Positions 33,816 through 61,376 of a stretch of 64,000 bases of DNA are shown here, in pieces. Origin of the DNA: Bdellovibrionales bacterium (GTDB lineage: Bacteria > Bdellovibrionota_C > UBA2361 > SZUA-149 > JAGRAN01); assembly GCA_020434585.1 (NCBI GenBank), contig JAGRAN010000043.1:1157-65156 (forward strand), in the 5' to 3' direction. The notes under the pieces are model-generated. The model made no database searches and was not told the origin of the DNA. It was given only the letters and a program-made list of their open reading frames with translations. Positions within the stretch are counted from its first letter, which is position 1. Each line of letters opens with the position of its first letter. The position numbers and the translations under genes are program-made.

Positions 33816-33930
33816 ACTGGCGTCCTAGGTGTTGACGCAAAGCTCTGCCGATACGCACTTAAATTTTAAACGAAAGTACTTCGAGGGGAAGAGGTATCAT
33901 CAGCAGTCATTCAAAATAGAGGGCCATTAA

Positions 33931-34698: not shown

Positions 34699-34713
34699 GC
34701 GAGAGATTTTCTA

Positions 34714-37389: not shown

Positions 37390-37399
37390 GGACACGCTA

Positions 37400-37648
37400 A
37401 TGAGACGCGAATCAGCACTGCATAATGAGAACGGAGCCGAAATTGTAGAACTGCTGCTTGGAGCAGCTATTTTAATTGTGGGGCTCCTTGCAGTTATTTC
37501 TTTTAATGAGGACGCGTGGTCCAACCGAACTCGAACTGCCCGCTGTCAGTATCAGGATTGGCAGCAAGTTGACCCGAGCGGCGGAACCGTACAGATGCTT
37601 TACAACGATTCTCAAGGTCGATGCTGTCGTAACGGCGTCTGCACCTAG
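37400..37648 (+). CDS. Small TadE-like/pseudopilin-like protein (82 aa)
   Basis: ENGAEIVELLLGAAILIVGLLAVISF N-terminal motif. Three Cys in the C-terminal tail. Confidence 0.45.
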   Translation: MRRESALHNENGAEIVELLLGAAILIVGLLAVISFNEDAWSNRTRTARCQYQDWQQVDPSGGTVQMLYNDSQGRCCRNGVCT

Positions 37649-37650: not shown

Positions 37651-39072
37651 CTAATTCCCCCGATAGTTTGACACGCCGTCTCTTCTTGAGCGGTTTCTCT
37701 GGCGCTTCGTGCTGTATGTTTCCCAATCAGAGCGCTTCCAAAACAAGTATTGCTCCGCAGACTGCCAAATGCTGCGACCGGGAATTCGTTCCGAGCCTGA
37801 GTCGACCTCGTATCTTGTAGTTATCCCTTGCTCACGCGCGTAGTCTTCTAGGTATTGCTTGAATTGCGTTGCTCCGTAAAGCACGTCTCCACCCTCGAGA
37901 AAAACAAGTCTAACATCGGTTTTTACAAAGTTATACATGTCGATAGATACATCTTTTGCGAGCGGTGACGGTTTCAGTCCGTCCGGGAAAAGCTCGTTTG
38001 TGTCTAGCCTGAGAAAATTTGACGAAGCGGCAAACGCGCGCGCAATGCGCTTGGGATGAGTCATGACAAACCTCTGGACAAAAGCACCGCCACCGCCAAT
38101 GCCGTACAGATACATTTCGCGCGCCTCGATGTCGGCTTCTTTTGCAACGTATTCGGCAACATCAAGAAATACTTTGTCCGCTCTACGTCCTCCGAGATTA
38201 AATGTCCCATAGTTTGGAAAGGTCAGGAAGTCGTAGTGAACCACCAGCGTGGCCAAACCGTGGTCACGGGCACGCTTCTGGCAGTACGCGAAGACCGAGT
38301 CCCAATCTAAGTCATAGTCGTGAAAGCACGCAAGGAGACGCGGCTTGTCGCCGTTTCGCGCTCGGACCGTAGGATAGTAAAACTGATAGTCTACTCCCTG
38401 ATACCTACGCACGTCGCGTTCACCGGCTTTATTGACGGGATCAATTTTCTCGGTGTCCAGCTCGCCCTTCGCAAATGCGATGGCGTGATTGATCGCGAGA
38501 GTGACTTTCGGTTCGTCAATACGAGCTCCCGCCTGCTCCAACGCATACATTGCTTCCCGGCTTCCTAGTATCCCTAAAGCCTGCGCCGCGGCGTAGCGAA
38601 CCCTTGGTTTAGCTGAGCGGTCTACCAAAATCTTAGTTAAACGGGGGACAGCCCACTTATGCTTAAGCTTGCCAAGAGTAAGTACTGCCTCAATCTGCAC
38701 ATCTTCGCTGCCTTCCAAAGTGTACTTCTCGACCAGTTTGCCAGCTCTCGGATCGGCGACCACTCCAAGCGAAGCGAGTATTGATCGCTGCGCTCTCTCG
38801 CTCGAAGCCAGCGGAAGCGCCTCAATCAATCGAAAAAAATCTGTTTTATCTACCAGTTCGGGAAGGGCCAGCGACGCTTCAATCACACCAGCTTCGTCAT
38901 CTCCCATCAGTCTTTGTAAAACAGCCGAGACCAACGCACCGTGATCCTCAGGCGCAGCATCTTGGGCGGCTGCAAAACTTACCGGGGCAAAGAATAGTGA
39001 AAATATAAAAAATGCAAGAAATTTCATGAAGACCCGCGTCGCGTCTGTAAGCAATCCATTTGAGAGTATCAA
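37651..39072 (-). CDS. HEAT-repeat protein fused to alpha/beta-hydrolase-like (esterase/depolymerase-like) domain
   Basis: Signal peptide. PBS-lyase-type HEAT repeats (PRVRYAAAQALGILG). A C-terminal hydrolase-like region carries GIGGGG where GxSxG is expected. Confidence 0.55.
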   Translation of the reverse strand: MILSNGLLTDATRVFMKFLAFFIFSLFFAPVSFAAAQDAAPEDHGALVSAVLQRLMGDDEAGVIEASLALPELVDKTDFFRLIEALPLASSERAQRSILASLGVVADPRAGKLVEKYTLEGSEDVQIEAVLTLGKLKHKWAVPRLTKILVDRSAKPRVRYAAAQALGILGSREAMYALEQAGARIDEPKVTLAINHAIAFAKGELDTEKIDPVNKAGERDVRRYQGVDYQFYYPTVRARNGDKPRLLACFHDYDLDWDSVFAYCQKRARDHGLATLVVHYDFLTFPNYGTFNLGGRRADKVFLDVAEYVAKEADIEAREMYLYGIGGGGAFVQRFVMTHPKRIARAFAASSNFLRLDTNELFPDGLKPSPLAKDVSIDMYNFVKTDVRLVFLEGGDVLYGATQFKQYLEDYAREQGITTRYEVDSGSERIPGRSIWQSAEQYLFWKRSDWETYSTKRQRNRSRRDGVSNYRGN

Positions 39073-39159: not shown

Positions 39160-39447
39160 ATGAATTCTTCAAATTCGGGCTGTGCTCATTTCAGGGTCGC
39201 CGACCCGGTCGGCTGGCGCAAGGTCGACGATCGGGTTGTCGTAGCTGATGTCTTTAGCGGTCGTTCCTTTATCCTAGAAGACGTGGAGGCCTTTATTTGG
39301 CAGCATATTGCTGAGAATCAGCCTGTCGCAGAGATCGTCTCCCTGATCTGTCAAGCATACAGCGTCGATCGAACCACGGCGGAAGCTGACCTAGCTGAGT
39401 TTATTGCGCAGCTCGTAGATGCCGAGCTAATTACCGGTGCCGAATAA
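39160..39447 (+). CDS. PqqD-family protein (RiPP recognition element-like peptide chaperone)
   Basis: 95 aa. Typical PqqD pattern (hydrophobic core, EDVEAFIWQHIAENQPVAEIVSLI...LAEFIAQLVDAELI). Confidence 0.8.
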   Translation: MNSSNSGCAHFRVADPVGWRKVDDRVVVADVFSGRSFILEDVEAFIWQHIAENQPVAEIVSLICQAYSVDRTTAEADLAEFIAQLVDAELITGAE

Positions 39448-41378
39448 TGTCCCTCAAGAGTTCCATTCCCAAGTTCGACGCGAAAATAAGTCAAGCGGTA
39501 GCGGAGATAGTGAGGGAGAAACTTGAAGCTGGACGCACGTTCCGTCTGGCCATCCAAACCCCCAGCATGTCCCCACTGATCACTCCAGGCGATGTCGTGC
39601 AAGTTCAAGGTAAAAATTTGACCGATATAAAACGAGGCGAAGTGGTCTGCTATAAACTACTCGGGGGATTTGGCGTACACAGAGTCGTCATTCCGTTCAG
39701 ATCTGAGAGCAAAACAATTACCACCCGCGGAGAACGCAATCTTGAAAATGACTATCCGATATCTGAGCAGGAATATATTGGAGTCGTTCGTGCGGTCGAA
39801 AGAGACGGTGAAGTAATTCACCTAGATACAATTCGCGGCAAATTCTTTGACTGGCGCTGCTGGCTCAGTGCCTCAAAGAAGCGCTTCGAGGCGCTTTCGC
39901 GCAAAAAGCTTGCGCGTATCGTTGTTCGCACACAAACGTTCCGACCGTTGCGTGCACTTTACGAATCTTTATATACACTGGGCCTCAATTCTTGGGTCAG
40001 ATTGCTGCCGCGGAAGAATCAAGTTAAAGCGGTGTTTGTCTATGGAAGCATGGCTGTAAAACGGATCATTCCTGGCTTAAGTGATATCGACTTAGTGGTC
40101 ATAGTTAAGCCGGAGAAAAAAGAAGACCTCTTTCCACTGCTAAGCTCGATTCACAAATATCACTACCGCATGATGCGCTGCTTCCCGTTTATATCACCAC
40201 CTAAGGTTTGCACTGAGAACGAATTCCGTAATTGGAACCGTTTCGGCAACTTCTACTTTCAGGATCACAAACGCTCAAAACTAATGTTCGGGGTAGATGA
40301 CCGTCCTGCCCCAATTTATGGAACGCCGATAAAACGGGAGCGAGACTTCGTTCATTTGCTAACCTTCGCGCACGGCTACTTTATCAATCATGCGTATGCG
40401 ATTATTTCCGGCACCGCATCCAAGCGCGATTACAATTCAATTGCAAAGCATGCGTCAGATATTCTCCGATATGCCGAGCAGGTATACATGACGATCGAGT
40501 CATACAGCGATCTTCCGATCAGTCGTGATGAGTTTCTTCGCTGGATTAAGAAGAAACACCCGAAAACAGAACGTGAAGCGATTGCTGAGCTGGCTGAAAG
40601 AGCCCGGATGTCAAATTCCGCACCCCAATCAGAACGTGCACTTCTCGCCGCGGAACTTTTCCTCCGCACGGTAAACGAAATGGTCTCGTTTGTTAAGTCA
40701 TCTTTCGCAATCTGGAGCTTTCTGCCAAACCCAGCAATCAAACTGTCCGAAGCGATGCTCGACAATGTTAGAATTCAACTCGTTGAAAGTAGTGTCCAAA
40801 AATTTACAACTAATAAATTTCAGCCGCTACTCGGCATTCTAATCGAGGCCGATACCACTCCTGAAGATTTGGTAAACAAAGTCGTCAAACTTCGTGAACA
40901 TGCAAGGCACACGGCCGCTCATCCGCTTCTCGTACACAGCAAGATGTTCAAGCTGATCAAAGCTTTGAATTCTAGTTCATATTTCGAAATGAGGGCGAAG
41001 GGTCAAATTTCCGAACTCGACTTCTGGCAGTGCCTTTGCGCCCAGCTGCTTGACCTTCAGACTTACGGATGGATTTCAGGAAAATACCCCGAGATTTCTA
41101 ACCGCCTGCACAGCATGAATATTCAACTCTTACTAAACCTGCGCTATGCACTTCGTTACGAATATCTGGAAGGCAGATTTAGCAGCGGATTTCAGATTGT
41201 TCCGCCTACGAGTGATCCACTCTCCGAGCCAATTAAAAACTTCATCCACGACATAAGCAGTGGAAACGAGTGGCTTTACCGCAGTGATTTTTGCAGCAAA
41301 TACTATCTCCTGGCCCGGGAAGTTTGGGACGAAGTGTATGCTCTAGCTCAGAATGGCTTAAAACAAAACGAAATCTGA
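39447..41378 (+). CDS. Fusion protein: S24/S26-type Ser-Lys peptidase domain + Pol-beta-superfamily nucleotidyltransferase + C-terminal helical domain (643 aa)
   Basis: Residues 38-65 TPSMSPLITPGDVVQV...DIKRGEVV match the SPase-I/LexA catalytic Ser and Lys. The domain ends in IGVVRAVERDG. Residues 195-216 VFVYGSMAVKRIIPGLSDIDLVVIV carry the NTase GS...DxD motif. Start overlaps the PqqD stop (ATGA). Confidence 0.75.
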   Translation: MSLKSSIPKFDAKISQAVAEIVREKLEAGRTFRLAIQTPSMSPLITPGDVVQVQGKNLTDIKRGEVVCYKLLGGFGVHRVVIPFRSESKTITTRGERNLENDYPISEQEYIGVVRAVERDGEVIHLDTIRGKFFDWRCWLSASKKRFEALSRKKLARIVVRTQTFRPLRALYESLYTLGLNSWVRLLPRKNQVKAVFVYGSMAVKRIIPGLSDIDLVVIVKPEKKEDLFPLLSSIHKYHYRMMRCFPFISPPKVCTENEFRNWNRFGNFYFQDHKRSKLMFGVDDRPAPIYGTPIKRERDFVHLLTFAHGYFINHAYAIISGTASKRDYNSIAKHASDILRYAEQVYMTIESYSDLPISRDEFLRWIKKKHPKTEREAIAELAERARMSNSAPQSERALLAAELFLRTVNEMVSFVKSSFAIWSFLPNPAIKLSEAMLDNVRIQLVESSVQKFTTNKFQPLLGILIEADTTPEDLVNKVVKLREHARHTAAHPLLVHSKMFKLIKALNSSSYFEMRAKGQISELDFWQCLCAQLLDLQTYGWISGKYPEISNRLHSMNIQLLLNLRYALRYEYLEGRFSSGFQIVPPTSDPLSEPIKNFIHDISSGNEWLYRSDFCSKYYLLAREVWDEVYALAQNGLKQNEI

Positions 41379-41398
41379 ATCGCTAGTTGGTATGAGAA

Positions 41399-41590
41399 CT
41401 ACATTTCAAGATTGATAAATTCGCCAGAATAGCCTAGCGAGCCCTCTTCAACCAGCTCGCCAGCCTCGTTTAGCGTTTCGATGGACGTAGCTCCGAAGCC
41501 TTCCACCTTCGACCCGTTCTCTAGGCAAGGCTTGTTGTATGCTTTGCGATCTTGGATTTTAAGCGTGCTGGTATTGTTTACTTCTGACAT
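41399..41590 (-). CDS. Candidate small acidic peptide (63 aa), possible precursor/substrate peptide
   Basis: MSEVNNTSTLKIQDRKAYNKPCLENGSKVEGFGATSIETLNEAGELVEEGSLGYSGEFINLEM. SD GAGAGGA lies 7 nt upstream. It is first in the minus-strand string peptide->ABC->kinase, and convergent with the fusion gene. Confidence 0.5.
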   Translation of the reverse strand: MSEVNNTSTLKIQDRKAYNKPCLENGSKVEGFGATSIETLNEAGELVEEGSLGYSGEFINLEM

Positions 41591-41687
41591 GCGTTTGGTC
41601 CTCTCGTTAACCCTGCTCTAGGAAACCATCTTAATTCTAGCACAGCAAACGCGATAAATTCAATAAAAATGATGTGTTTTTGGACAT

Positions 41688-42410
41688 TTAAACCTCAAGC
41701 CCCGCCTCTGAAATCGCCCGTTCAAGCGAGTCAAAAGCCTTGAAATTACCCTCATGATAAACTAGCAATTTGGTGCAAATTTCTCTAATGATTTCGAGAT
41801 CATGGGATGCCACTAAGCACCCCCCACCCTTTTGCGAAAAGCGCTTTATTTGTTCGCAGCAGTGTCTCTTAGCTTGGAGATCGAGCGATCGTTCGAATTC
41901 GTCGAGGAGCAGAATTTCCGCCGCAGAATGTTGGACGATGCTGAAAGCAAGTCGCGCACGCATCCCAGGGCTAAGGAGGCGAATTTGAGTATCTGCTTCG
42001 ACGTCAATTCCGCTTGATTTAATTACGTCCGCAGCAGCTATGGCTAAATTAACCGGCACCCGCATCAATGCACTACAAAGGTCTATATTCTCTTTAACAT
42101 CTAGTTCCGCACTGAAATACGCATTGGGAGACATAAATGGCATCACCCCCGCAGTTATATTTACAGCACCTTCATCCGGCGCATAGATACCGGCAGCAAG
42201 CCGTAGAATTGTGGACTTACCTGAACCGTTTGGCCCAACAATCCCAATTATATCACCTGGGCCGAGCGCGAAGCTCAGCGGCTGTAAAACTTGTTTTGAC
42301 TCATGTTTACTCGGTCTTAGTCGAGCCAATGCCCAAGCAACAAACCGCTCCCTCTTCCACCAAGTCGGAAATGATTTTACCACACTATCAAACTGAAGCA
42401 GTGCGCTCAT
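41688..42410 (-). CDS. ABC transporter ATP-binding protein (ABC-2/Wzt-like, short)
   Basis: Walker A GPNGSGKST. ABC signature LSPGMRARLAF. Walker B ILLLDE. Start set at the internal Met (MSALLQFDSVVKSF), giving a 4-nt overlap with the permease stop. Confidence 0.85.
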   Translation of the reverse strand: MSALLQFDSVVKSFPTWWKRERFVAWALARLRPSKHESKQVLQPLSFALGPGDIIGIVGPNGSGKSTILRLAAGIYAPDEGAVNITAGVMPFMSPNAYFSAELDVKENIDLCSALMRVPVNLAIAAADVIKSSGIDVEADTQIRLLSPGMRARLAFSIVQHSAAEILLLDEFERSLDLQAKRHCCEQIKRFSQKGGGCLVASHDLEIIREICTKLLVYHEGNFKAFDSLERAISEAGLEV

Positions 42411-43192
42411 ACCACCTCCGCCACACGCTGCTTTAGACCGTGCGCAACTGCAGCGCCGACTGCAAACACAATTAAAGCGAACAACACAGCGTACCCAACT
42501 GACCACAACGCAAGAACACCACTCTCGCCCACGCCACTGCGAGCAAGGCGAAAAACGTGCGTAAGCGGATTAAGCTGAAGCCAGCTTATTCGCCGGCCTA
42601 CAAATACTTCGGGGTAGAATATTGGAGTTGCAAAAAAAGCGATCCGAGAAACTATGCCCCAAAGGTAGGGGGTATCTCTAATAAACACGTTAGCAACTGA
42701 AAGCAGCAAAGCTAGTCCGGAACAAACTAGCAGCAACAGCACTGCTGCGACGCAATAGCCGGCGAAAATTGCTGCTCCGTGCATACCATTCAGGTAACTG
42801 ACTAACAGCAAAACTAAGACGCTCTCTAAACAAAATGCCCCAAAAACCGCAGCAACTGGAGACAAGACAACTATCCAAAACGGTACACTCATGGATCGCA
42901 GCCATTCACGGCGAGTAAGTGCGGAAGACATGCCAGCACTAGTCGCTCGCGAAAAGAAACCCCACATAACGAGGCCAACTAACAGAAATGTCCCATAGCC
43001 GCTTTGGTACTTTTCGAAAGCAGGTCCGAGAAACGCGTAAATGATGCACCAGCTCAGCAAAGGGCTGAATAAGGTCATCATAAATCCCGCGAAACTGGAT
43101 TGATCACGGCTTCTCCACTCTGCTAGCACAAGCCTGACAAAAAGTTTCCAGTTTGTGAGCTGTTTCGATTTCAAACTAAGCGCGACCCTCAA
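42407..43192 (-). CDS. ABC-2 type transporter permease
   Basis: 261 aa with six predicted TM helices. Adjacent and translationally coupled to the ATPase. Confidence 0.8.
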   Translation of the reverse strand: MRVALSLKSKQLTNWKLFVRLVLAEWRSRDQSSFAGFMMTLFSPLLSWCIIYAFLGPAFEKYQSGYGTFLLVGLVMWGFFSRATSAGMSSALTRREWLRSMSVPFWIVVLSPVAAVFGAFCLESVLVLLLVSYLNGMHGAAIFAGYCVAAVLLLLVCSGLALLLSVANVFIRDTPYLWGIVSRIAFFATPIFYPEVFVGRRISWLQLNPLTHVFRLARSGVGESGVLALWSVGYAVLFALIVFAVGAAVAHGLKQRVAEVV

Positions 43193-44198
43193 GAAGAAGC
43201 TTCAATATCAATTCTCGATTTCGCTCCAGATCGCGAGAAAGATAAACGCGATAGCATTTGCTGCGAACTGAAATTACCAAGCTCGCATAAATTCGCGACC
43301 ACGCCAGCATCATTTTGCTCAACGTGTCGCGAGTCGTTGACTGCAAAAAAAATTCCACAATTTGCGGCAAGCCAAGGCCAAAAACACAGTCGCGCAAGAG
43401 CGCCCTAAACGCCGAGAAAACTCCTATCGCTGAGACAGAGGGATTCTCAGCGGCTGTCCACTGCCCAACGATCAGTATTCTCGGGGGCACAGCTGAATTC
43501 ACATGGACTTTATCGCCAAACGCATCAAGGCTAATCAACGTCTTGGGCTCCCTGTTCTCCCTAGAAAAAGAGCGAAGAAACTGTTTCGGCACAGAATCGG
43601 GTTCATCTCCGGTTCTGACCCCCAAGCGCACCGGAAATGGCAGCACCGTCCCCGCTCTGGAAATAAGCGGAGTGTCGTCAGACAGAAGCTTGAAGCCGGG
43701 TTCAGACATCAGGGCCAGGCCCAGCGTCGATTTTCCGCCGTGCATTGGAAGCAGTACTAACGCAGCTCCCTCCGGAGTAGATAGTCCAAGGGCATGAACT
43801 CTGTGAATTCCTCTGCGGTCCAATAGCTCGCCGACACGGGACAATACTATTAGGTAAAGCTTTTCGTAGACGAAGTCTCTATTAGTACCGACAATTTCAA
43901 CATGCTCGCTAGTTCGATGGTGAATTGCGAGTGCCTTTCCGAAGTAATCTACGTAACGCACACTACCACTGTCATAACAAACATATTCGGGACTATGCAT
44001 GCTGGCTGATACTGGTGGTATCAATCCCCACTGCGGCTCTGCCAGCACAGCCTTAACGCTAACATCAGGGTTGTCAATTGCTTCAGACCTAAGGCAGCCG
44101 CAATCAAACTCTAGCCACTGCTGAAGCTGCTTGTCGTCGGTGTCCACCCGAACGCTCACGCCATGAAATAAGAAAAACTGTGTCGCCCCTCCTGCCAT
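43176..44198 (-). CDS. HprK-related P-loop kinase (HPr kinase C-terminal-domain-like)
   Basis: LVLLPMHGGKSTLGLALM P-loop followed by LLSDDTPLI. This resembles the HprK C-terminal kinase fold used by peptide-tailoring kinases. It overlaps the permease start by 17 nt. Confidence 0.7.
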   Translation of the reverse strand: MAGGATQFFLFHGVSVRVDTDDKQLQQWLEFDCGCLRSEAIDNPDVSVKAVLAEPQWGLIPPVSASMHSPEYVCYDSGSVRYVDYFGKALAIHHRTSEHVEIVGTNRDFVYEKLYLIVLSRVGELLDRRGIHRVHALGLSTPEGAALVLLPMHGGKSTLGLALMSEPGFKLLSDDTPLISRAGTVLPFPVRLGVRTGDEPDSVPKQFLRSFSRENREPKTLISLDAFGDKVHVNSAVPPRILIVGQWTAAENPSVSAIGVFSAFRALLRDCVFGLGLPQIVEFFLQSTTRDTLSKMMLAWSRIYASLVISVRSKCYRVYLSRDLERNRELILKLLLEGRA

Positions 44199-44283: not shown

Positions 44284-45972
44284 ATGTCACCCGCAGGCAG
44301 CGACTCAACTATTGGAATCTCTCGCTCGGAATTGAGCGCAAGGGCTCACCGTGCCCTAATCTGTCGAATCTTCCTGACAGCCTTCGTAACTTACGCTGTT
44401 TTTATCAATTTCTTCGGTTGGAATGAGGCAGCTGGTCTAGCTATGACGCGGAGCCTCGCCGATCAGAGACAATTCGAGATCGACTCATACTGTAATCTCC
44501 CGGGAGCCGGCGAAAGAAGATTTTTCGAATTCACCGGCGATAGAGCTTACTTTAACAATCACTTTTATTCGACCAGAGCTCCGCTTGGGCCTATCTTAGG
44601 CATTCCAGCCTACCTGACGTATCGCACATATTATATGTTGCGATATGGTCACAACGTCGTTGGCCATGGCTTTCCGGAAAAATTCCTGCCAAGCGTTTAT
44701 TTTTGGGTAACAGCCAGTACAAGCTGTTTGTTCGGTGCGCTGCTTACCGTTCTAATTTTTGATTTCTCAAGACACTTTTTGAGAAACACTAACTCACGAA
44801 TATTTGCCGCCCTTCTTTTTTCTTTTGGTACATTAATATTTAACTTTAGCACAGTTGCCTTTCCTCACACCCCAAGTGCATTCTTTGTTTTTGTATCGTT
44901 CTACCTGCTTTACGAACTACAGTCGCCAACTGGATGCATGCGGCTGAAAAACAAGCCAAATCTTAGCGCGTTCTTTTCCGCAGCCGCTTTTGGATGCGCT
45001 GTCCTTCATCACTATCTTGTCGCGACAATGGGGCCGGCTTTTTTAATGTACGTTCTAATGAGTGAGCACCGAAGAAAACTTATCTTCCCTTGGCTTCTCG
45101 GCGCAGCAATTACAGCTAGTCTTTTCGGCGCCTACAACTATGAAATATTCAAGACGCCCTTCGATTGGACGCAGAACCATGAAGATAGCCAAATATTTAG
45201 TAGGGGGAGCGACGAGCCCTTAACTCAGCAAACGAAAACCCTTATCAAGAAAATTCCGAGAATTGAATGGACTATATCCGATCGACTAATCCAAGTTTTT
45301 AAGCGTGTGGCCAAAAGGAGGATGTTTCTTCGCGCTACGCGCTTAATGATATATCCGTACCGTGGACTTTTACTTTATAATCCACTGCTAATCTTCGCGT
45401 TCGTAGGTCTTTTCATTCTTTGCCACACCAACTTTAAGTCAGCATTGGCAATCCTCTTTGCGTTTGGCCTAACTCTTTTTTTCAATGCGCTTCACACAGA
45501 TTGGTGGGGTGGTGGCAGCTTCGGGCCTCGTTTTCTAGTGCCGACCATTCCGTTGCTGTTTGTTGGACTTTTAGAATTTCTCCGCTGGGTACGCACGGCA
45601 CGGAACCGAAAGGTTTGGACCGCTATTTTCGGATTTGTTTTGCTCTTTAATTGTGTCACTATTTGGAGCGGACTGCGGGACTGGGTGTATCATGTTGGCC
45701 AACCGCTCGACAGTAATGCTCAAATAATGATGAACGCACTCAAAACCCACCAACAGCTAATGCTCGAGTTTTCGCTTCCCAAAAGCCCGCTGTTCACTAC
45801 CTATGTACCAGGCTTGTTTTCTGATGGAGTGAAAAGCGTCGTACTAGAGGGAATGCAGGGCTCGTCTTGGTCGTTTCCGAACAATGTGCTGTATCTAGTT
45901 GGCGTGCTCACCCTAATATGGCTGCCTTTCAATCGCCTCACTTTAAAAAACCTTAAAGGCGTCCGTGGATAG
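44284..45972 (+). CDS. Polytopic membrane protein, GT-C-like (ArnT/PMT/YfhO-like) putative glycosyltransferase
   Basis: 562 aa with at least 10 TM helices. The first periplasmic loop has acidic/aromatic motifs (FEIDSY...RAPLGPILGIPAYLTY). Confidence 0.5.
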   Translation: MSPAGSDSTIGISRSELSARAHRALICRIFLTAFVTYAVFINFFGWNEAAGLAMTRSLADQRQFEIDSYCNLPGAGERRFFEFTGDRAYFNNHFYSTRAPLGPILGIPAYLTYRTYYMLRYGHNVVGHGFPEKFLPSVYFWVTASTSCLFGALLTVLIFDFSRHFLRNTNSRIFAALLFSFGTLIFNFSTVAFPHTPSAFFVFVSFYLLYELQSPTGCMRLKNKPNLSAFFSAAAFGCAVLHHYLVATMGPAFLMYVLMSEHRRKLIFPWLLGAAITASLFGAYNYEIFKTPFDWTQNHEDSQIFSRGSDEPLTQQTKTLIKKIPRIEWTISDRLIQVFKRVAKRRMFLRATRLMIYPYRGLLLYNPLLIFAFVGLFILCHTNFKSALAILFAFGLTLFFNALHTDWWGGGSFGPRFLVPTIPLLFVGLLEFLRWVRTARNRKVWTAIFGFVLLFNCVTIWSGLRDWVYHVGQPLDSNAQIMMNALKTHQQLMLEFSLPKSPLFTTYVPGLFSDGVKSVVLEGMQGSSWSFPNNVLYLVGVLTLIWLPFNRLTLKNLKGVRG

Positions 45973-47440
45973 AATCTCTTCATCCTCCCCCAGCCTTACG
46001 CGTTGGATTCTTAGAGGGGCTTTTCAGTATGGTTCAGTCTTCGGGACGATTGTCGCGATACTGACAACATATATAAATGCCGCTGATTCCGGTGCGGCAC
46101 AGCTTAGCTTGGCAGATTCGCAGCTGCTTTACCTTTATCTGTTTGCCTTTTACGGAACTATGGGGGCCGTGTGCGCGGCAGGCGGCTATGTAGTCACTCA
46201 AGTCCTAAGTAAACTGATTCGAGTCGACCTAAATTTGCCTCTTCTGTTTACTTTCTTATGGTTTTGGCCATTGCTAATTATCACGATGCTGCCGGATATA
46301 GCCATTCTCTCTCCATATCCATTTGAATACTTTTGGCACACATTGCATTGGCCTTTTCAATTGCTAGCAATCGCCGTAATTTCAACTTTATTTGTGCTAT
46401 TGTATTTCGCGCTTATTCGTCCGCTACGAATAGAATCCATTGGTTTGAATTCCAATTTATTTAACGTTTTTTTGTTTGTGCTTGGAATAGCAGCTGTCGC
46501 GGTCGCAAACTCCCATATTTCACATCAGAATTACGATTTAGAAAGTCCCTCCCCTGTATCGCCGCTCGCCATCGGCTCAGCTTCTCCTTTGATTGTCATA
46601 GGAGTTGACGGTCTGGGCAAAGCCGCAATCGATAAACACTCGACTGAAGTCTTGCCAAACTTAAAGCACATCTTCGGAAGCTCTTGTGCTTATTCGCTCG
46701 ACGGTCACTACCCAGGGCTTACTCCGAAAAAGTGGCCGGTAATCACAACCGGTGCGAGATCACGCGAAACCGGAGTCCATTTTTACTTTAGCTACAAGCT
46801 TCCAGGCCTTAAAAGTTCAATTCAGCGCTGGCCTCTTGAAACCTTAACTAGCCTTACGGCCTTAATGTACGTTGATAAATATATCGACATTGCTGAAAGA
46901 ATGAATTGTGCGCATCACCTCAAAGCCGAGCCAGTTTGGAAAGAAATAGAGCAACGTGGCCTACATGCTTCGACAGTGTGTTGGCCAAACAGTAAGAACT
47001 GCCTTGAAGAGACAACAAAACATACGACTAGCTGCCCGAAGGGTGATTGGACGAGCACCGAACGTATTAAGGAAATAGCAGACGATGCCCTAGCCTCCAT
47101 TAAGTCAGGTCATGATCTGGTAATGGTCTACTTTTCACAACTAGACACAGTGTCCCACGACTCTTGCAGAGAATCGGGCGATTCCGCCGAAGTCGAGCAG
47201 GTCATACGGGAAATTGATCGAAACATTGGACGGCTAATTTCCGCCTTACCCGAATCAGGTGCAGTTATGATCGTATCTGACCATGGCTTTGATTACTCAA
47301 TATGTACCCATGTACTCGGTGTACCAGCTGTTGCGATTGTTTGGAAAAAACAGGGTGATTTAAACTGCGTTGGACCGGATTCAGAATTATCGCTGCGCTC
47401 GATTGCTCCAACGATTAAAGAGCTTTTATTATCAAACTAA
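45965..47440 (+). CDS. Membrane-anchored alkaline-phosphatase-superfamily enzyme (phosphodiesterase/phosphotransferase-like)
   Basis: Five or six N-terminal TM helices. The soluble domain (PLIVIGVDGLGKAAIDK...MIVSDHGF) carries AlkP-core metal-binding-type motifs. Confidence 0.6.
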   Translation: MDRISSSSPSLTRWILRGAFQYGSVFGTIVAILTTYINAADSGAAQLSLADSQLLYLYLFAFYGTMGAVCAAGGYVVTQVLSKLIRVDLNLPLLFTFLWFWPLLIITMLPDIAILSPYPFEYFWHTLHWPFQLLAIAVISTLFVLLYFALIRPLRIESIGLNSNLFNVFLFVLGIAAVAVANSHISHQNYDLESPSPVSPLAIGSASPLIVIGVDGLGKAAIDKHSTEVLPNLKHIFGSSCAYSLDGHYPGLTPKKWPVITTGARSRETGVHFYFSYKLPGLKSSIQRWPLETLTSLTALMYVDKYIDIAERMNCAHHLKAEPVWKEIEQRGLHASTVCWPNSKNCLEETTKHTTSCPKGDWTSTERIKEIADDALASIKSGHDLVMVYFSQLDTVSHDSCRESGDSAEVEQVIREIDRNIGRLISALPESGAVMIVSDHGFDYSICTHVLGVPAVAIVWKKQGDLNCVGPDSELSLRSIAPTIKELLLSN

Positions 47441-48459
47441 CGCGAGTTTACTCTGGTAGAAGCGCGAGAGAGCATTTCACTCAATCCTCCGCAAATACTT
47501 CCAAGACCGTAAGCAACATGAACAAAGAACGTTACACTCATGATCGTTGGCGTCAGCAGCAGCTGCTCGGCTTTAATCGCTGCCCTTAGGCTAAATGCCA
47601 AGTTTAGCAGCAGATACATTAACAGCGGAAGCGCCAGCCAACCGTGCGGATGCACTAACAGAGCAATAAGATAATAGACAAACAGCATAGGGACAAAAAA
47701 CGCTGGAGAAACAATACTTGAATCGAAAAAGAAACTCCGAAAGCGATTGAAGCCAGATCTAAAGACGGGAATCCAAAGCTCTTTAAAGGATTTTTTTCTT
47801 TCGTGCAGAACAACCAGGGCAGGTTGATAAACCATTTTAACACCGGCGGAGTGGAGTTCCGAGAGGAGCACATTTTCCTCATTGCGATTAAGCTCAGGAG
47901 GAAATCGATAGGCGCCAGAAGCAAAGACAGAAGTTCGAATCCACAAATTGCATAAAATCAAACTTGTTTCGTCCACGTCGGGGATAACCCCACCTACAGT
48001 GGAATGCCGGCGGCGAGTAGCTCCGGTGCAGAAGTATGAAGAGTAGGCTAAGCCAACTGCTCTTTGAAACGAACTGGCTTCCTTGGCTGTTGTGTCCGGG
48101 CCGCCGATAACTTCAGCATTAGGATATGCTGCCATCGTCTCTTCAGCAATTTTGAAATACTCAGGACAAAGTTCGACATCGTCATCTAAGAAACAAATCC
48201 AGTCTCCCCTGACTAGAGGTAACGCTTTATTTCTGGCGGCCCCGCTATGCTGAGGCTGCACACGCTCAACGTGCAAAGATTTTCGTTTAGCAACGAATTC
48301 CAGCTTACTGTCTGGCAGAGTTTGTGCGTCTTGATTTACTATCAGGACTATTTCAAAGTGCCTTGAGCCCACGGCTGCTTCAATACTGGCGATGCACCGC
48401 TCGAGCAATTTGAGCCGCCCGTAAGTAACAATAACGATTGAAATCGGCGATTGGTCCAT
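47437..48459 (-). CDS. Glycosyltransferase family 2
   Basis: IVIVTYGR...DD(D)VE motifs. C-terminal TM helices. Confidence 0.75.
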   Translation of the reverse strand: MDQSPISIVIVTYGRLKLLERCIASIEAAVGSRHFEIVLIVNQDAQTLPDSKLEFVAKRKSLHVERVQPQHSGAARNKALPLVRGDWICFLDDDVELCPEYFKIAEETMAAYPNAEVIGGPDTTAKEASSFQRAVGLAYSSYFCTGATRRRHSTVGGVIPDVDETSLILCNLWIRTSVFASGAYRFPPELNRNEENVLLSELHSAGVKMVYQPALVVLHERKKSFKELWIPVFRSGFNRFRSFFFDSSIVSPAFFVPMLFVYYLIALLVHPHGWLALPLLMYLLLNLAFSLRAAIKAEQLLLTPTIMSVTFFVHVAYGLGSICGGLSEMLSRASTRVNSR

Positions 48460-51928: not shown

Positions 51929-54352
51929 ATGCCATTTAGGTCTCTCAAGACACTTTCAGAAGAACAGCAGTGGCGCTACGTCGAATATATGCTGCTGGCT
52001 GCCGCTGCTATTCCAATTTTATTGGTTCTGCGAGCGTTTTTCTCCACCGACATGGTCAGCGGCTGGGACATGGAGCCGCAATACCACTTAGTGGAACTGA
52101 TGGTCGGCTACTTACGCGAAGGCAGAATTACAGGCTATGACCGTGCTTGGTTTGCTGGATATCCCGCTTTCACGTTCTATGGACCATTCACCTATATTCT
52201 GGCTGCCGCTCCTTCATTACTAAGCGCCGACATTTTTCCTCCCGCATTCGGACTGCATATTATTATTATCGCTCTTCCGTTTTTGTATCTTTGGGCTCTG
52301 CGCTTTACCACAAAGACTTTCTTCGGTAGCCGCGCCGGCTGCGTATCTATTTTGTTCGGAATATTTTTCCTGCTTAGCCCTAGCAATAACCTGAGCGGCC
52401 CTTTCGGAATTCACGGAAGCCTGACACACGGCACAATAAACGGATTCGTCGGTGCAGTCCTGATTCTGCTTTTGCTCGGCATAGTAGAGTCGCATCGACA
52501 AGCAAGCTCATCCATTAAGGCGGCCCTGGCGACTATTGTATTTGCCGTATTAATTCTAACTCACACGCTTTCAACTATTTTCGCACTCAGCCTATTGCTT
52601 ACTTACTCTCTAGTTCACGGCAAGGAAGGATTTAAGATATCCGCGACTATTGTGGCGATAGCAGCTGTTGTGACAATCCCTTGGTGGATCCAATTCGTTC
52701 GCAATCTAGACTTCACGTCCGGCCGTCTGCTTAGTATACTTTGGGACGATCCAATCATTTCGCTTCTGCCTGGCAGCCAGTTTGTATTGGAATGCGTACA
52801 CAATTTCACAGCAGGAAGTCTGCTTAGACTTCCAGTTCCAGCGCTGTTGCTTGCTGTTTGTACGATTATTTCAATTGTTGCTTTAATCCGCGAACAGAAT
52901 TACGCACTGCCGGCGATTTTCCTAACTTTGCTGTTGTTATTGCCTCGCAACGTATTGCCGCAGTTCATTGAATTGCCGATTCATTACTATCGATTTGTAA
53001 TGCCGCTGTTTGGAATAATGCTGCTGCTCGCGTCAAACGGGCTGCTAATCATTGTCAATCGCCTTCAGGACGTGAGCAGTCCGTTTGGTCGAAACATTTC
53101 CTCCGGGCTACTTTCCCTGTTTATAGTTTGGTCTTTGACAACTGTTTTTGTTCAGGACTATTCAGGACCGCTTACAACTTCCGGACCTTATGCCAGAATT
53201 TTCAAGTCGGCACAGCAGGCTTGCGCCAATCGACGCCTACCGGCAAGCCCTATAAAAATTAGCGAAACCAGTGCCTATGCCGCCGGAAGCAGCGTCATAG
53301 AATTCCTAAAAGAATCTGGGGTCTCAGGCCGCGTCGCATCTGAAATGCCGCACTACAACAATGACTTGCTTGGCTCCCCTCATTTTTTTAGCTCACTGAT
53401 ACCAAAAGAAGTTGGGGCTGAAGTAATTCCAGGTCTCTTAGCGGAGTCTTCTTACTCAGCTGGGTTCTTTCCGGCCACTATAGGCTACGAGAGCGATAGC
53501 ATCCGCTGGGGCCGCGACCATTTGAGCATTTATTTTCATGAAGAAAATCCGTTTGTATCTCTCGAAGGCATGATGCACCGCCTTAGACTTTGGGGAGTCG
53601 AGTTTTTAATCGCGACAAGTTTAAAGTACAAGGACGCACTCAGAACCTTAAAAGCTGACATCATCGAGGAAGTGTTTGAGTCCGCACCTTTTGCTGTCTT
53701 CAAAATATCCCACCCGATGCCCAAGATACGGGCGATTCGCGGCAAGCCGTTCTTGTTCGTAAATCTGGGCGGTATGGACTTCCGCGAATTTGCCGAGGAA
53801 TGGTACAAATCCGATTCGGCAATCCATGTGCCGGTCATTACAACTAGCAAAGATTACCGCGAACTTTCGTCTGTCGAGCGAGAACAAATCGGTGGCTTCA
53901 TCTTGAGCGTGCGCGGAAGCGCAAGGCGCAGCAAGTTAGAGATGAAGCCTTGGATGATTCCGGGAAAATCGCTTATGGTAGTGGGTAGAATTAGTGATTT
54001 CCAAGGACAGCCAAACTATTGGATCGCAACTTCCCAACAGGACGGAGGAATCGTTTTCTTCGAAACAAAAACTGATTATCAGCTTGGCGCATATTCATTC
54101 GAGAGCGATTTGTACGACGGCCTCAATCGATTTCTGCACTCCCCTCAGAGCGCTCTAGATGGCGCAACCCAGATAGAACCGATCGAAATCTCAAATTCCG
54201 CGATAACTTTCGAACATAGCGGCGGCGCCATCATAAACTACTCTTTCTTTCCGCGATGGAAGAGTAAAGATCCTCAGCAAACTGTCTTCGCCGCAGCGCC
54301 AAGCGTAATGTACGTCGTCTCTCGTGGACGAACCGAATTGTATTACGACTAA
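51929..54352 (+). CDS. Large polytopic membrane protein, GT-C/YfhO-like (807 aa)
   Basis: About 14 TM helices then a roughly 350-aa soluble domain. The first loop (DMEPQYH...GYDRAWFAGYPAFTFYGP) loosely resembles the 44284 protein. Confidence 0.5.
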   Translation: MPFRSLKTLSEEQQWRYVEYMLLAAAAIPILLVLRAFFSTDMVSGWDMEPQYHLVELMVGYLREGRITGYDRAWFAGYPAFTFYGPFTYILAAAPSLLSADIFPPAFGLHIIIIALPFLYLWALRFTTKTFFGSRAGCVSILFGIFFLLSPSNNLSGPFGIHGSLTHGTINGFVGAVLILLLLGIVESHRQASSSIKAALATIVFAVLILTHTLSTIFALSLLLTYSLVHGKEGFKISATIVAIAAVVTIPWWIQFVRNLDFTSGRLLSILWDDPIISLLPGSQFVLECVHNFTAGSLLRLPVPALLLAVCTIISIVALIREQNYALPAIFLTLLLLLPRNVLPQFIELPIHYYRFVMPLFGIMLLLASNGLLIIVNRLQDVSSPFGRNISSGLLSLFIVWSLTTVFVQDYSGPLTTSGPYARIFKSAQQACANRRLPASPIKISETSAYAAGSSVIEFLKESGVSGRVASEMPHYNNDLLGSPHFFSSLIPKEVGAEVIPGLLAESSYSAGFFPATIGYESDSIRWGRDHLSIYFHEENPFVSLEGMMHRLRLWGVEFLIATSLKYKDALRTLKADIIEEVFESAPFAVFKISHPMPKIRAIRGKPFLFVNLGGMDFREFAEEWYKSDSAIHVPVITTSKDYRELSSVEREQIGGFILSVRGSARRSKLEMKPWMIPGKSLMVVGRISDFQGQPNYWIATSQQDGGIVFFETKTDYQLGAYSFESDLYDGLNRFLHSPQSALDGATQIEPIEISNSAITFEHSGGAIINYSFFPRWKSKDPQQTVFAAAPSVMYVVSRGRTELYYD

Positions 54353-56425: not shown

Positions 56426-56432
56426 CCTAGCC

Positions 56433-57221: not shown

Positions 57222-57291
57222 TCAGGGCTTTTTTCCGCCCCTCGACCTCTACCTGCCTTAAGGCCTTAAGCTCCTGATTCTTCATCGATCT

Positions 57292-57322: not shown

Positions 57323-57351
57323 TATTCCTAAGAGCATTACTAGGTTTTACC

Positions 57352-58170: not shown

Positions 58171-58180
58171 CGGCTGCGCT

Positions 58181-61359: not shown

Positions 61360-61376
61360 TAGGAACGGAGAAAGGT

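Follow-up and report, generated by a model that had tools for sequence, protein, structure and literature searches.

The six tightly packed genes at positions 39160-44198 of the window (the whole stretch analysed, 64,000 nt of an uncultivated Bdellovibrionales genome, GCA_020434585.1, JAGRAN010000043.1 positions 1,157 to 65,156, forward strand) are, on balance, more likely than not to form the core of an undescribed ribosomal peptide (RiPP-like) pathway that depends on a RiPP recognition element (RRE). They encode a PqqD-type protein, a peptidase-nucleotidyltransferase fusion, a 63-aa peptide, an ABC ATPase, an ABC-2 permease and a kinase of the HprK/PEPCK fold, and as judged from their sequences they make a candidate new RiPP class with putative chemistry. 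An undescribed, non-lasso, RRE-dependent peptide pathway had been proposed in the first-pass annotation, and the conserved YxxPx(L/V) peptide, the linkage of the components and the lack of a cyclase and B2 protease support that proposal, the comparative part of this support being strong. The features discussed below, together with the flanking genes, are as follows (related loci carry L numbers).

39160..39447, + strand: discrete PqqD-family protein, putative RRE for the leader peptide (95 aa; PF05402)
39447..41378, + strand: soluble 643-aa fusion of S26B, pol-beta nucleotidyltransferase (NTase) and helical C-terminal region (TIGR02228, PF01909)
41399..41590, - strand: putative precursor peptide, 63 aa, a conserved small ORF, MSEVNNTSTLKIQDRKAYNKPCLENGSKVEGFGATSIETLNEAGELVEEGSLGYSGEFINLEM
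41420..41434, - strand: conserved core motif G53-Y-S-G-E57, with Ser55 a candidate phosphorylation/nucleotidylation site
41489..41500, - strand: G31-F-G-A34, candidate leader/core junction 13-16 residues past the Tyr
41522..41539, - strand: leader recognition motif Y18-N-K-P-C-L23 (YxxPxL), common to 12/12 peptides
41634..41663, - strand: promoter-like TTGAAT-18-TAGAAT with TG upstream, in the ATPase-peptide spacer (consensus match only)
41688..42410, - strand: ABC transporter ATPase, 240 aa from the ATG at 42410 (PF00005, E 9e-17)
42407..43192, - strand: ABC-2 type permease (PF01061, 36.7 bits against 26.9)
43176..44198, - strand: P-loop kinase of PEPCK/HprK fold, unnamed family
44284..45972, + strand: PMT_2 / GT-C membrane glycosyltransferase, divergent from the kinase (PF13231, E 4e-7)
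47437..48459, - strand: membrane-anchored GT2 glycosyltransferase, GT2a, which travels with the kinase family in different phyla (PF00535)
51929..54352, + strand: 807-aa polytopic membrane protein, unassigned to any family, which travels with the peptide gene

The ORFs lie where they were first placed and their coordinates bear out the tight packing, although the genes number six and not the seven first counted. On the minus strand they run kinase, permease, ATPase and peptide, so that the peptide gene, 97 nt past the ATPase, closes the kinase/exporter operon at its 3' end and does not head it as had been annotated. The ATGA assigned earlier to the PqqD/fusion junction belongs instead to the permease/ATPase junction, where the ATPase start (MSALLQFD, 42410) overlaps the permease stop with GGAGGTGG just upstream; the PqqD stop and the fusion start overlap by 1 nt as TAATG. 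A 272-aa GTG-started ATPase ORF was rejected as an over-extension, the orthologues being 218-240 aa. Promoter-like sites in the region are not above shuffled expectation. Neither the window nor any of the related loci was found to contain a lasso cyclase or a B2 protease, as had been claimed for the 39160-44198 locus.

The sequence comparisons indicate that the peptide gene is real and conserved. An SD-like GAGAGGA ends 8 nt upstream of its ATG, in agreement with the strong SD described earlier, and SD-like sequences precede most peptide copies. The ORF stays open at the corresponding place in each related lineage whose contig reaches that far, and follows the kinase-ABC2-ABC genes in the window, L001/L007, L002, L088, L089 and L090, that is, in every clade contig long enough. 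Homologues are single in L001/L007, L002, L003, L088 and L089 and form a tandem pair in L090. Absence of the ORF elsewhere had been named as a possible refutation; it recurs in seven related lineages and three very distant loci, with the PqqD domain and the S26-NTase fusion nearby in nine of the ten lineages (the L090 contig ends within the fusion gene). Synonymous sites are saturated in most pairwise comparisons, and the only unsaturated pair, L001/L003, gives a dN/dS of 0.39. The peptide has no family match in Pfam or NCBIfam. It is acidic as first described (pI 4.36 overall), with the acidity in the C-terminal half and a neutral-to-basic leader half.

YxxPx(L/V) is present in all 12 detected peptide copies, against a background of 78 Y..P.[LIVM] matches among 8341 small ORFs (0.9%) in the fetched loci, and a leader HMM sets the peptides apart from ~9000 small ORFs, a separation that is partly by construction. 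On this evidence the leader motif is specific, and lasso-type PqqD RREs are documented to recognise YxxP(xL) (PMC6784204, PMC12710340). Beyond the motif, G-[FG]-G-[AP] occurs in shared register in the peptides of the window, L001, L003, L002, L090 (both copies, L090a and L090b), L088 and L089. The lasso leader consensus YxxPxLxxxGxxxxxTx places cleavage 17 residues from the Tyr, and in the 63-aa peptide this distance ends exactly after GFGA, which is hence a candidate cleavage site. G-F-G-(A/P) is not a clean fit to the preference of signal peptidases for small residues at -3/-1, and in L090 a Pro would fall at +1 or -1. Further on, the peptides of the window, L001, L003, L090a and L090b share GYSG(E/G), and x-S-G extends to L002, L088 and L089, which would make Ser55 a plausible modification site. 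In the peptides of L092, L093 and L011 just 12-17 residues follow the motif, so that the 'core' there must be organised differently.

The PqqD protein matches PF05402 with E 1.7e-13 (51 bits, gathering cut-off 23.4), and its top NCBIfam matches, both below cut-off, are the lasso B1-type PqqD chaperones NF033536 and NF033530. In the fusion, an S26B signal-peptidase-like domain (about residues 30-125) and a pol-beta nucleotidyltransferase domain (about 186-260) are followed by a helical remainder. The peptidase part matches archaeal-type signal peptidase I over residues 31-115 (TIGR02228, below cut-off at E 1.9e-11), and the nucleotidyltransferase part matches NTP_transf_2 over residues 186-236 (PF01909, 24.9 bits, cut-off 21). 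The peptidase had been taken for an S24/S26 Ser-Lys enzyme; alignment of the fusion-family profile with human SEC11A/C matches Ser40, His78 and Asp102 to the catalytic residues, which rules out a Ser-Lys S24/S26A peptidase and identifies a Ser-His-Asp type (SEC11/SipW, S26B). Across 29 aligned fusions S40, M41, H78, R79, D102, D213 and D215 are invariant, while 26 also have S201. A hydrophobicity scan found no transmembrane segment or hydrophobic anchor. Both halves thus look active in a protein predicted to be soluble, with catalytic residues intact in 29/29; the AF2 model has low confidence (pLDDT 54).

PqqD orthologues lie upstream of the S26-NTase gene in L001, L002, L003, L007, L088 and L089. 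Closely related loci are collinear over ~20 kb, so synteny alone carries little weight among them. L088 and L089 have the PqqD-fusion pair 5-7 kb from the kinase-exporter-peptide operon, with the order changed and every component kept. The very distant loci L091-L093 came to light only through their fusion enzymes (E 1e-25 to 1e-37). L092 and L093 share the order peptide, PqqD, GT2(+PqqD-like), S26-NTase, with the GT2 gene between PqqD and fusion, and L091 has MT-GT2-PqqD (the PqqD domain fused to MT-GT2), S26-NTase, a convergent peptide, ABC, GT2a and a kinase fragment. The linkage of peptide, PqqD domain and S26-NTase fusion has thus outlasted the rearrangement of gene order in L088 and L089, and the three occur again in L091-L093.

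The kinase had been called HprK-related. Its fold is clearly PEPCK/HprK, whereas by sequence it is remote (18 bits against HprK-like TIGR04352, cut-off 200), with HRVH / GGKS-T / LSDD as its conserved residues. The suggested resemblance to known HprK-related-kinase + PqqD neighbourhoods did not extend to membership, both proteins falling far below the family cut-offs. The permease has three strongly hydrophobic stretches in a sliding-window scan (KD19 >1.6), a rough count and no TM prediction. Throughout the clade loci, and also in L004, L006, L025, L026 and others, its gene comes after that of the kinase. The ATPase consists of the nucleotide-binding domain only, with no C-terminal carbohydrate-binding extension, and its top NCBIfam matches (TagH and Wzt-type exporters) are below cut-offs.

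The kinase family has at least 238 members in many phyla, mostly, in other phyla, within GT2/GT4/PMT/ABC-2 clusters in which PqqD, an S26 domain and a YxxPxL peptide were undetected even with improved HMMs; the same three were not detected in L006, a close relative at 46% identity. It is accordingly possible that kinase, NTase and ABC-2 transporter act on a glycan and that the product is a glycan or glycopeptide. Some other members of the kinase family have neighbours typical of peptide pathways: L014 has two PqqD genes and an rSAM/SPASM gene, L005, L025 and L037 have rSAM/SPASM genes, L040 has a stand-alone S26-like gene and L011 a YxxPxL ORF.

GT2a is probably in the same pathway as the cassette. 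In a phmmer scan of the first 88 sequences (87 fetched loci and the window), GT2a-like genes, for which GT2a was the top window query, occur in 29, and also in L088-L091; they often adjoin the kinase. Its top NCBIfam matches, EpsD and MftF-like, are below cut-offs. PMT or PMT_2 genes lie near the kinase in L004, L005, L006, L034, L063, L088 and L089, and the PMT_2 / GT-C enzyme is a possible periplasmic glycosylation step. The 807-aa protein has seven hydrophobic segments, and homologues stand directly 3' of the peptide gene in L088 (11147-13504, E 4e-82; weak PTPS_related match) and L089 (12920-15379, E 3e-87).

For the RRE-dependent peptide pathway we infer the binding, order of steps, cleavage, chemistry and glycosyltransferase role as follows. 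The 63-aa precursor would be translated, possibly from its own promoter. The discrete PqqD protein would bind it at the leader motif (R/K)K-x-Y-x-K-P-x-L and hand it to the fusion enzyme, whose gene appears translationally coupled to the PqqD gene. The NTase domain and the kinase would then act on hydroxyl residues in the C-terminal core, which is acidic and rich in Ser and Gly; the conserved (Y/F/D/Q)-S-G serine is the best candidate, and it would receive a phosphate, NMP or nucleotide-activated group. The soluble Ser-His-Asp S26B domain would next remove the leader, plausibly at G-(F/G)-G-(A/P), and the ABC-2 transporter would export the product. Outside the cytoplasm, sugars may be added to it by two kinds of flanking enzyme, the GT2s that resemble polyprenyl-phosphate-sugar synthases and the GT-C (PMT_2) enzyme.

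In the lasso peptide pseudomycoidin, the terminal Ser is decorated by the kinase PsmK and the NTase-like PsmN, and we propose that the kinase and NTase of the window parallel this pair. Lasso kinases act on linear precursors and carry a His-Lys-Asp-Asp motif (PMC9266682); the conserved residues of the window kinase are of the same kinds, a likeness at the level of residue type. Lasso pathways use a cyclase and a B2 protease, whereas the window, with neither, has the S26B-NTase fusion.

The cassette at 39160-44198 consists of six ORFs arranged as two convergent units, and judging from their sequences a precursor gene, a recognition element, modifying enzymes, a protease and an exporter would all be encoded inside this interval.

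ORFs of the cassette (39160-44198), minus-strand genes listed as they are transcribed
Plus strand: PqqD-family protein, 95 aa (PF05402, E = 1.7e-13)
Plus strand: fusion protein, 643 aa, its start sharing one base with the PqqD stop (TAATG)
Minus strand: kinase-like protein, 340 aa
Minus strand: ABC-2 permease
Minus strand: ABC ATPase, start ATG at 42410
Minus strand: 63-aa ORF

The first-pass annotation had described the cassette essentially correctly, apart from three details. It counted seven genes instead of six, it placed the peptide at the head of its operon whereas the peptide gene is the last of the kinase/exporter unit, and it assigned an ATGA junction to the PqqD/fusion pair which is found instead between the permease and the ATPase. 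The ATPase start overlaps the permease stop at this ATGA and has a Shine-Dalgarno sequence (GGAGGTGG) upstream. A GTG start 32 codons 5' of the likely ATG, giving a 272-aa product (ORF 41688-42506) that overlaps the permease gene by 100 nt, was rejected as an ORF-calling artefact. The 63-aa ORF follows the ATPase gene after a 97-nt spacer and carries a Shine-Dalgarno-like GAGAGGA 8 nt before its ATG. The reported combination of RRE, kinase, NTase, exporter and small peptide is indeed present at the locus, and components of it co-occur again at two rearranged relatives (L088 and L089) and three very distant loci (L091-L093).

The PqqD protein scores 51 bits against PF05402 (cut-off 23.4), and its best NCBIfam matches are lasso B1 chaperones, at 39.4 bits for NF033536 and 33.2 bits for NF033530 against cut-offs of 80 and 70, respectively. 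Lasso-type PqqD RREs bind the sequence YxxP(xL), and the same kind of motif is used by related RREs of other RiPP classes (PMC6784204, PMC12710340). Residues 18-23 of the window peptide, YNKPCL, match YxxPxL. The pattern Y-x-x-P-x-(L/V) is found in 12 of 12 related small ORFs, usually in the form (K/R)K-x-Y-x-K-P-x-L, and the bare motif occurs in just 0.9% of the small ORFs in the fetched DNA.

The peptides of the window's clade have a second conserved block, G-(F/G)-G-(A/P), 13-16 residues C-terminal of the motif Tyr. Lasso leaders have the consensus YxxPxLxxxGxxxxxTx and end at about that distance from the Tyr, and by analogy the block is a candidate leader/core junction at which cleavage might occur. 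This block contains no conserved Thr in the clade peptides, and it fits the small -3/-1 rule of signal peptidases poorly, a Pro being present in the L090 relative. The C-terminal part of the peptides is acidic and free of Lys and Arg, and contains a (Y/F/D/Q)-S-G motif that reads GYSGE in five peptides; Ser, Thr and Gly are abundant in the cores. In L092, L093 and the kinase locus L011 the peptides stop 12-17 residues past the recognition motif, and a tail this short suggests a differently laid-out core. Shine-Dalgarno-like sequences lie 5' of most peptide copies, and dN/dS is 0.39 for the sole unsaturated pair, most pairs being saturated at synonymous sites and hence uninformative. Given the shared motif, the recurrence beside the enzymes, the Shine-Dalgarno-like sites and the dN/dS value, there is good evidence that the small ORF is a precursor peptide gene, the product of which would be recognised by the PqqD protein and processed by the fusion enzyme.

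The N-terminal part of the fusion matches archaeal/ER-type signal peptidase I (TIGR02228, E = 1.9e-11; 44 bits against a cut-off of 51.85). When the family profile was aligned to human SEC11A/SEC11C (7p2q, 7p2p), Ser40 (SM.P), His78 (HR) and Asp102 (GD..D) fell on the catalytic positions. On the strength of this alignment the peptidase is predicted to be an S26B Ser-His-Asp enzyme, and the Ser-Lys S24/S26 assignment made at first pass was therefore discarded. The fusion has no hydrophobic segment anywhere along its length (19-residue hydropathy reaching at most 0.55 in the first 60 aa and nowhere exceeding 1.5), and as predicted from this absence it must act in the cytoplasm. Residues 186-236 form a pol-beta nucleotidyltransferase domain (PF01909, 24.9 bits against 21) with conserved S201, D213 and D215. 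The catalytic residues are invariant in 29 of 29 aligned fusions. The remaining ~340 C-terminal residues are helical and match no assigned domain, and an AF2 model made from four sequences was poor (pLDDT 54).

An exhaustive profile search with the fusion returned 254 proteins at E <1e-10. Among the best 150 of these, 27 cluster representatives beyond the four query sequences have the S26 plus NTase architecture. Family members, where they are named, are called only 'hypothetical' or 'predicted nucleotidyltransferase'. A scan of metagenomes with the fusion alignment gave no match, and a scan of genomes gave only L007, which is of the same species as L001 (99.4% identity).

The kinase has no Pfam match and matches TIGR04352 weakly, as do 28 of the 34 members of its family (best E = 1.2e-5). 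An AF2 model from a 34-sequence alignment reached a pLDDT of 92. Searched against the PDB by sequence, the kinase profile gave insignificant P-loop matches only; a fold search detected the fold, and this fold together with the Walker-A Lys, the His and the Asp-Asp places the protein in the PEPCK/HprK P-loop superfamily. The motifs HRVH, GGKS/T and LSDD are kept across the family. A His-Lys-Asp-Asp motif has been reported for lasso-peptide kinases, which act on the linear precursor (PMC9266682); by residue kind, those kept in the window family resemble this motif.

A word-indexed search with the fusion found three relatives only, at 43-59% identity, leading to the contigs L001, L002 and L003. 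These and L007 share the window layout, including the small convergent ORF, and their collinearity over 20 kb could be mere ancestry. More informative arrangements were reached through kinase relatives (48-64% identity). Two of the loci, L088 and L089, have the PqqD gene and a 576- or 599-aa S26-NTase gene several kb away and in a changed order, and their kinase-ABC2-ABC operon is followed directly by a 58- or 68-aa ORF. In L090 the operon is followed by two tandem small ORFs. Three distant S26-NTase fusions could also be placed on contigs, as follows.

Gene order at the distant S26-NTase loci
L092: small ORF, PqqD, GT2 with a second PqqD-like domain, S26-NTase
L093: gene order identical to L092
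L091: methyltransferase-GT2-PqqD fusion, S26-NTase, convergent small ORF, ABC transporter, homologue of the window glycosyltransferase GT2a, kinase fragment at the contig end

Conservation, which the first-pass annotation proposed to check, is seen for the set of peptide, PqqD and S26-NTase, which recurs across ten lineages; it does not extend to most loci of the wider kinase family, in which neither peptide nor PqqD was detected.

This family is large, its 238 or more relatives being spread over Omnitrophota, Binatia, Verrucomicrobiota, Desulfobacterota, Oligoflexia and other groups. We surveyed the kinase neighbours in 80 metagenomic loci and six others, annotated with local profiles. The commonest were GT2 (38 loci), ABC-2 permease (17), ABC ATPase (17) and GT4 (14), along with GT-C enzymes of the PMT/PMT_2 type. 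GT2 genes that best match GT2a (47437-48459, minus strand, in the window) were present in 29 sequences out of the 88 scanned first (a number that includes the window) and frequently adjoin the kinase. Stand-alone NTases akin to the NTase domain of the fusion were found at 29 loci, often directly 3' of the kinase, and rSAM/SPASM genes at L005, L025 and L037.

PqqD was found at a single surveyed kinase locus, L014, which has two copies and an rSAM/SPASM gene, and a stand-alone S26-like gene likewise at one, L040. Improved PqqD and S26 HMMs detected no such domains at kinase loci other than these two. Many of the contigs are short, which makes absences weak evidence, but the peptide module is clearly missing from several long loci, among them L006, the kinase of which is 46% identical. 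When ~9000 small ORFs of kinase-only loci were scanned with leader and motif HMMs, the sole further precursor, and the only significant leader-like ORF, was at L011 (E = 2e-4). From kinase loci that are largely without the peptide module we conclude that there are two modules, an RRE module (peptide, PqqD, S26-NTase and often GT2) and a kinase module (kinase, GT2, NTase, ABC-2 and GT-C). Both modules occur together in the clade of the window and in L091.

Four of the kinase loci carry further features. L014 belongs to a distant lineage and encodes, within 1-3249, the kinase followed by PqqD, a 232-aa GT2, the second PqqD and the rSAM/SPASM gene; it resembles a peptide-modifying cluster of another type, centred on this kinase family. 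At L040 a 186-aa S26-like protein (1682-2242) directly follows the kinase and reads GNCM where the fusions read xSM, so that its nucleophile may be Cys instead of Ser. In L037 (18695-19969 and 7910-9037) the kinase gene is preceded by the rSAM/SPASM gene, and about 8 kb from the kinase gene lies the sole asparagine-synthetase-type PP-loop ORF with SGGLDS in all the fetched DNA, which might be a cyclase-like enzyme of a related cluster. Finally, a small ORF directly 5' of the L042 kinase gene (63-209; ...RKYQRPTLTKLGNVRTVTM...) matches the full lasso consensus YxxPxLxxxGxxxxxT; it is a weak candidate and could be a spurious frame, and its score with the leader HMM of the clade was not significant.

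The exporter is encoded by separate genes for the permease (PF01061, 36.7 bits against 26.9) and the ATPase (PF00005, E = 9e-17). The flanks of the cassette encode polyprenyl-phosphate-hexose-synthase-like GT2s, a flippase-like domain, a PMT_2 enzyme (44284-45972, plus strand) and an alkaline-phosphatase-type phosphodiesterase. An 807-aa polytopic membrane protein (51929-54352, plus strand) has seven hydrophobic segments and no Pfam family. Its homologues lie directly after the peptide gene in L088 (11147-13504) and L089 (12920-15379), moving with that gene on rearrangement, and the L088 copy shows a weak PTPS_related (GT-C-like) match.

Further out, the 5' 29 kb of the window holds housekeeping genes (ThiG, GidA, BamA/TamB, 2-oxoacid dehydrogenase E2) and the 3' end (55517-63088) holds the flagellar/motor genes MotA, FliM and FliP with two MotB/OmpA-like genes. 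Upstream of the cassette (32970-37648) are a 281-aa protein, a TadE-like protein (33931-34698), an 891-aa protein without a family and an 82-aa protein (37400-37648), the N-terminus of which (…NGAEIVELLLGAAILIVGLL…) resembles by eye a Flp-type pilin. This set is conserved in L001, L002 and L007. In L088 a TadE-like gene similar to that of the window (E = 3e-7) lies downstream of the peptide gene and is followed by 906-aa and 70-aa ORFs; these match the window genes by size and position only, queries with the 891-aa and 82-aa proteins giving no match in L088. The genes at 32970-37648 may travel with the pathway. Divergent from the adjoining PqqD gene, at 37651-39072, is a HEAT-repeat protein of 473 aa with a hydrophobic segment at its N-terminus, present in the window, L001, L002, L003 and L007 and not in L088 or L089. 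The window carries an intact GH13 alpha-amylase-like gene (49276-51795), which in L090 (2365-4941) is split into five or six consecutive ORFs, reflecting either long-read frameshift errors or a pseudogene.

The domain identities, residue conservation, recognition motif and gene co-occurrence are what we observe, and they constitute the basis for proposing that the cassette is a RiPP pathway with binding, modification, cleavage and export steps, a reading that we consider probable. The PqqD protein would bind the YxxPxL leader, and the kinase and the NTase domain would decorate a core serine by analogy with PsmK/PsmN of pseudomycoidin (PMC9266682). The soluble S26B domain would then remove the leader near the GFG(A/P) block and the ABC-2 pump would export the product, which could be glycosylated further. 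Binding, the site of cleavage, the modification chemistry and the part played by the flanking genes are what we infer in this scheme.

The cassette could instead be a pure glycan pathway, in which a polysaccharide or lipid-linked glycan is the substrate of the kinase, NTase domain and ABC-2 transporter, chain-end phosphorylation or a terminator step coupled to Wzm/Wzt-type export being one possibility, and PqqD and the small peptide would be unrelated neighbours or only regulatory. The neighbours of the kinase family are mostly GT2, ABC-2, ABC ATPase, GT4, PMT/PMT_2 and stand-alone NTases with PqqD nearly always missing, and glycosyltransferases, the flippase-like domain, the GT-C enzyme and the phosphodiesterase lie on both sides of the cassette. 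Furthermore, the best NCBIfam matches of the ATPase and permease are teichoic-acid and galactan exporters, equivalog models being far below cut-off. We nevertheless think this reading unlikely. It leaves unexplained the recurrence of the YxxPxL peptide, PqqD and S26-NTase in ten independent lineages, rearranged ones included, as well as the constant place of the peptide gene right after the exporter ATPase, and the set also recurs where 5-10 kb of available flank shows no kinase. PqqD domains are peptide-binding modules, and we know of none that binds a glycan. Lastly, the ATPase is a bare 240-aa NBD without an extra C-terminal domain, such as the carbohydrate-binding extension of terminator-dependent Wzt, although other glycan exporters also lack one.

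The glycosylation genes could be accommodated by an extension of the RiPP model in which the peptide is the acceptor for this machinery. The kinase and NTase would make a phospho- or nucleotidyl handle to which RRE-guided GT2s and, after export, a PMT-like GT-C would add sugars, giving a heavily glycosylated peptide or a peptide-anchored glycan. In keeping with this, GT2 is fused to PqqD domains in L091, L092 and L093, GT2a and the kinase travel together and are joined by the peptide set in L091, and true protein O-mannosyltransferase-type PMT genes occur at kinase loci. The GT2 gene GT2b is similar to the polyprenyl-phosphate hexose synthases that supply GT-C enzymes, the Ser/Thr/Gly-rich cores would suit an acceptor, and the NTase-like PsmN puts hexoses on the phosphoserine of pseudomycoidin (PMC9266682). 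However, the window itself has no GT-RRE fusion, every GT assignment scores under its family cut-off, and the synteny of flanks among close relatives may reflect shared ancestry. The extension overlaps largely with the RiPP reading and differs mainly in how much of the flank is counted in the pathway; we regard it as rather improbable. The same low probability attaches to a RiPP-polysaccharide hybrid, with the peptide as glycoconjugate primer or anchor, a phospho-nucleotidyl handle put on the core serine by an RRE-guided kinase/NTase pair, removal of the leader by the cytoplasmic signal-peptidase-like domain, Wzm/Wzt-like export and a glycan added outside the cytoplasm by GT-C enzymes dependent on polyprenyl-phosphate sugars, which if true would account for the kinase family within the glycosylation clusters of many phyla.

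A peptide-derived small molecule is a very unlikely product. Here the PqqD-bound peptide would be a scaffold, as in the PQQ and mycofactocin pathways where PqqD domains hold this role, and a few C-terminal residues would be modified, cut out by the S26 domain and perhaps given a nucleotidyl or sugar group, yielding a cofactor-like metabolite. The short tails of the L092, L093 and L011 peptides would fit such a route, as would the second-best NCBIfam match of GT2a, the mycofactocin glycosyltransferase MftF (below cut-off). Against it, no radical-SAM or cross-linking enzyme lies in or adjoining the cassette, the one Radical_SAM match of the window being in the 0-29 kb region; the long, variable, acidic cores of the clade and the tandem copies at one locus are more typical of secreted peptides, and a dedicated exporter is conserved.

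A split or incomplete lasso cluster, with PqqD as B1, the peptide as lasso precursor, PadeK/PsmN-type tailoring of the sort known from lasso clusters (PMC9266682) and the cyclase and B2 elsewhere, is extremely improbable: the B1 chaperone matches, the YxxPxL leader and an Asp or Glu at positions 7-9 past the putative junction in most cores speak for it, but the lasso-specific PqqD models stay under cut-off, no conserved Thr is seen at the putative leader end, acidic residues are entirely missing from the L088 core, and searches of the 64-kb window and of ten related loci, flanks of up to 10 kb included, revealed neither an asparagine-synthetase-like cyclase nor a transglutaminase-like B2, the place of B2 being taken by a dedicated conserved protease of another type.

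If the RiPP pathway works as we propose, it would represent a new class of RiPPs whose leader protease is a soluble signal-peptidase domain of the ER/archaeal type, a kind of RiPP protease for which we found no report in the literature searched. This protease is fused to a nucleotidyltransferase, and a lasso-type recognition element would serve without the making of a lasso. About half of the matches to the discrete lasso RRE model of RRE-Finder are without a cyclase (PMC7470986), and the pathway would give part of these 'orphan' lasso-like RREs a concrete function. It would also provide the first functional handle on a PEPCK/HprK-fold kinase family with >238 members in many uncultivated phyla, and on the S26-NTase fusions with their ~27 further clusters at 50% identity. 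A testable link would be raised between ribosomal peptide modification and envelope glycosylation machinery, and as the source is among predatory-type Bdellovibrionota relatives, the biological role of the product could also be of interest.

Among known systems the closest are lasso clusters with tailoring enzymes (paeninodin PadeK, ThcoK, pseudomycoidin PsmK/PsmN), which share with the window a discrete PqqD-type RRE, a YxxPxL leader, an HprK-superfamily kinase, an NTase-like enzyme, which in those clusters decorates the phosphorylated residue, and an ABC exporter (PMC9266682, PMC6784204). In contrast to these, the window has neither cyclase nor B2, its protease is of the S26B type, soluble and joined to the NTase, its leader shows no conserved Thr at the putative junction, its conserved Ser is internal (GYSGE) and not C-terminal, and its kinase, from an unnamed family, is PEPCK-like and has two domains. 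No Asn_synthase match was found among the flanking genes or, elsewhere in the window, among the best 25 of 53 Pfam families, no SGGxDS PP-loop ORF in the window or clade loci, and no transglutaminase-like B2 Pfam match in any scanned neighbour. As predicted from its gene content, and because the cyclase and B2 are absent and a different conserved protease stands in place of B2, the cassette is not a lasso cluster; the lasso reading was rejected, in agreement with the first-pass annotation.

The NCBIfam 'HPr-rel-A system', which is uncharacterised and comprises a TIGR04352 kinase A and a TIGR04353 PqqD chaperone, likewise pairs an HprK-like kinase with a PqqD-family protein in one neighbourhood. 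The partial resemblance noted at first pass holds for this gene pairing and stops short of membership, which we rejected because both window proteins are far under the family cut-offs (18.3 bits against 200 for TIGR04352 and 23.6 against 35 for TIGR04353). To our knowledge the definition of the system includes neither an S26-NTase fusion nor a peptide, and no literature on it was found within the library searched.

The peptidase domain shares the SM.P, HR and GD...D catalytic motifs with SEC11, SipW and the soluble S26 protease of NiSOD maturation, and fusion relatives give weak TIGR02754 matches. SipW serves a small dedicated substrate set and the Ni-superoxide dismutase protease takes off a short N-terminal propeptide. 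Unlike these enzymes, the fusion has no membrane anchor, is joined to an NTase and is paired with an RRE, and the leader of its candidate substrate is hydrophilic and not a signal peptide. O-antigen and teichoic-acid export with the WbdD kinase and Wzm/Wzt resembles the window in having a kinase gene adjoining an ABC-2 permease/ATPase pair in a GT-rich locus, and presumably the kinase/ABC-2 arrangement is comparable to WbdD-type chain-end modification. The kinase fold is, however, another one, the ATPase has no carbohydrate-binding domain, and the PqqD domain, protease and conserved peptide have no place in that model.

Finally, the GT2 (PF00535) fused to a PqqD-like RRE in L091-L093 is of the kind found by RRE-Finder and its 2025 follow-up, which describe RRE-GT2 fusions as unprecedented and uncharacterised (PMC7470986, PMC12710340). 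Neither survey covers the S26-NTase partner, the kinase or the precursor family, and the window has a discrete RRE only. A description of a PqqD, S26 and NTase cluster or of the peptide family was not found within the literature library searched. Set beside these systems, and as far as its sequence allows, the cassette is a candidate new RiPP class that would combine a known recognition logic with an unprecedented protease/NTase fusion.
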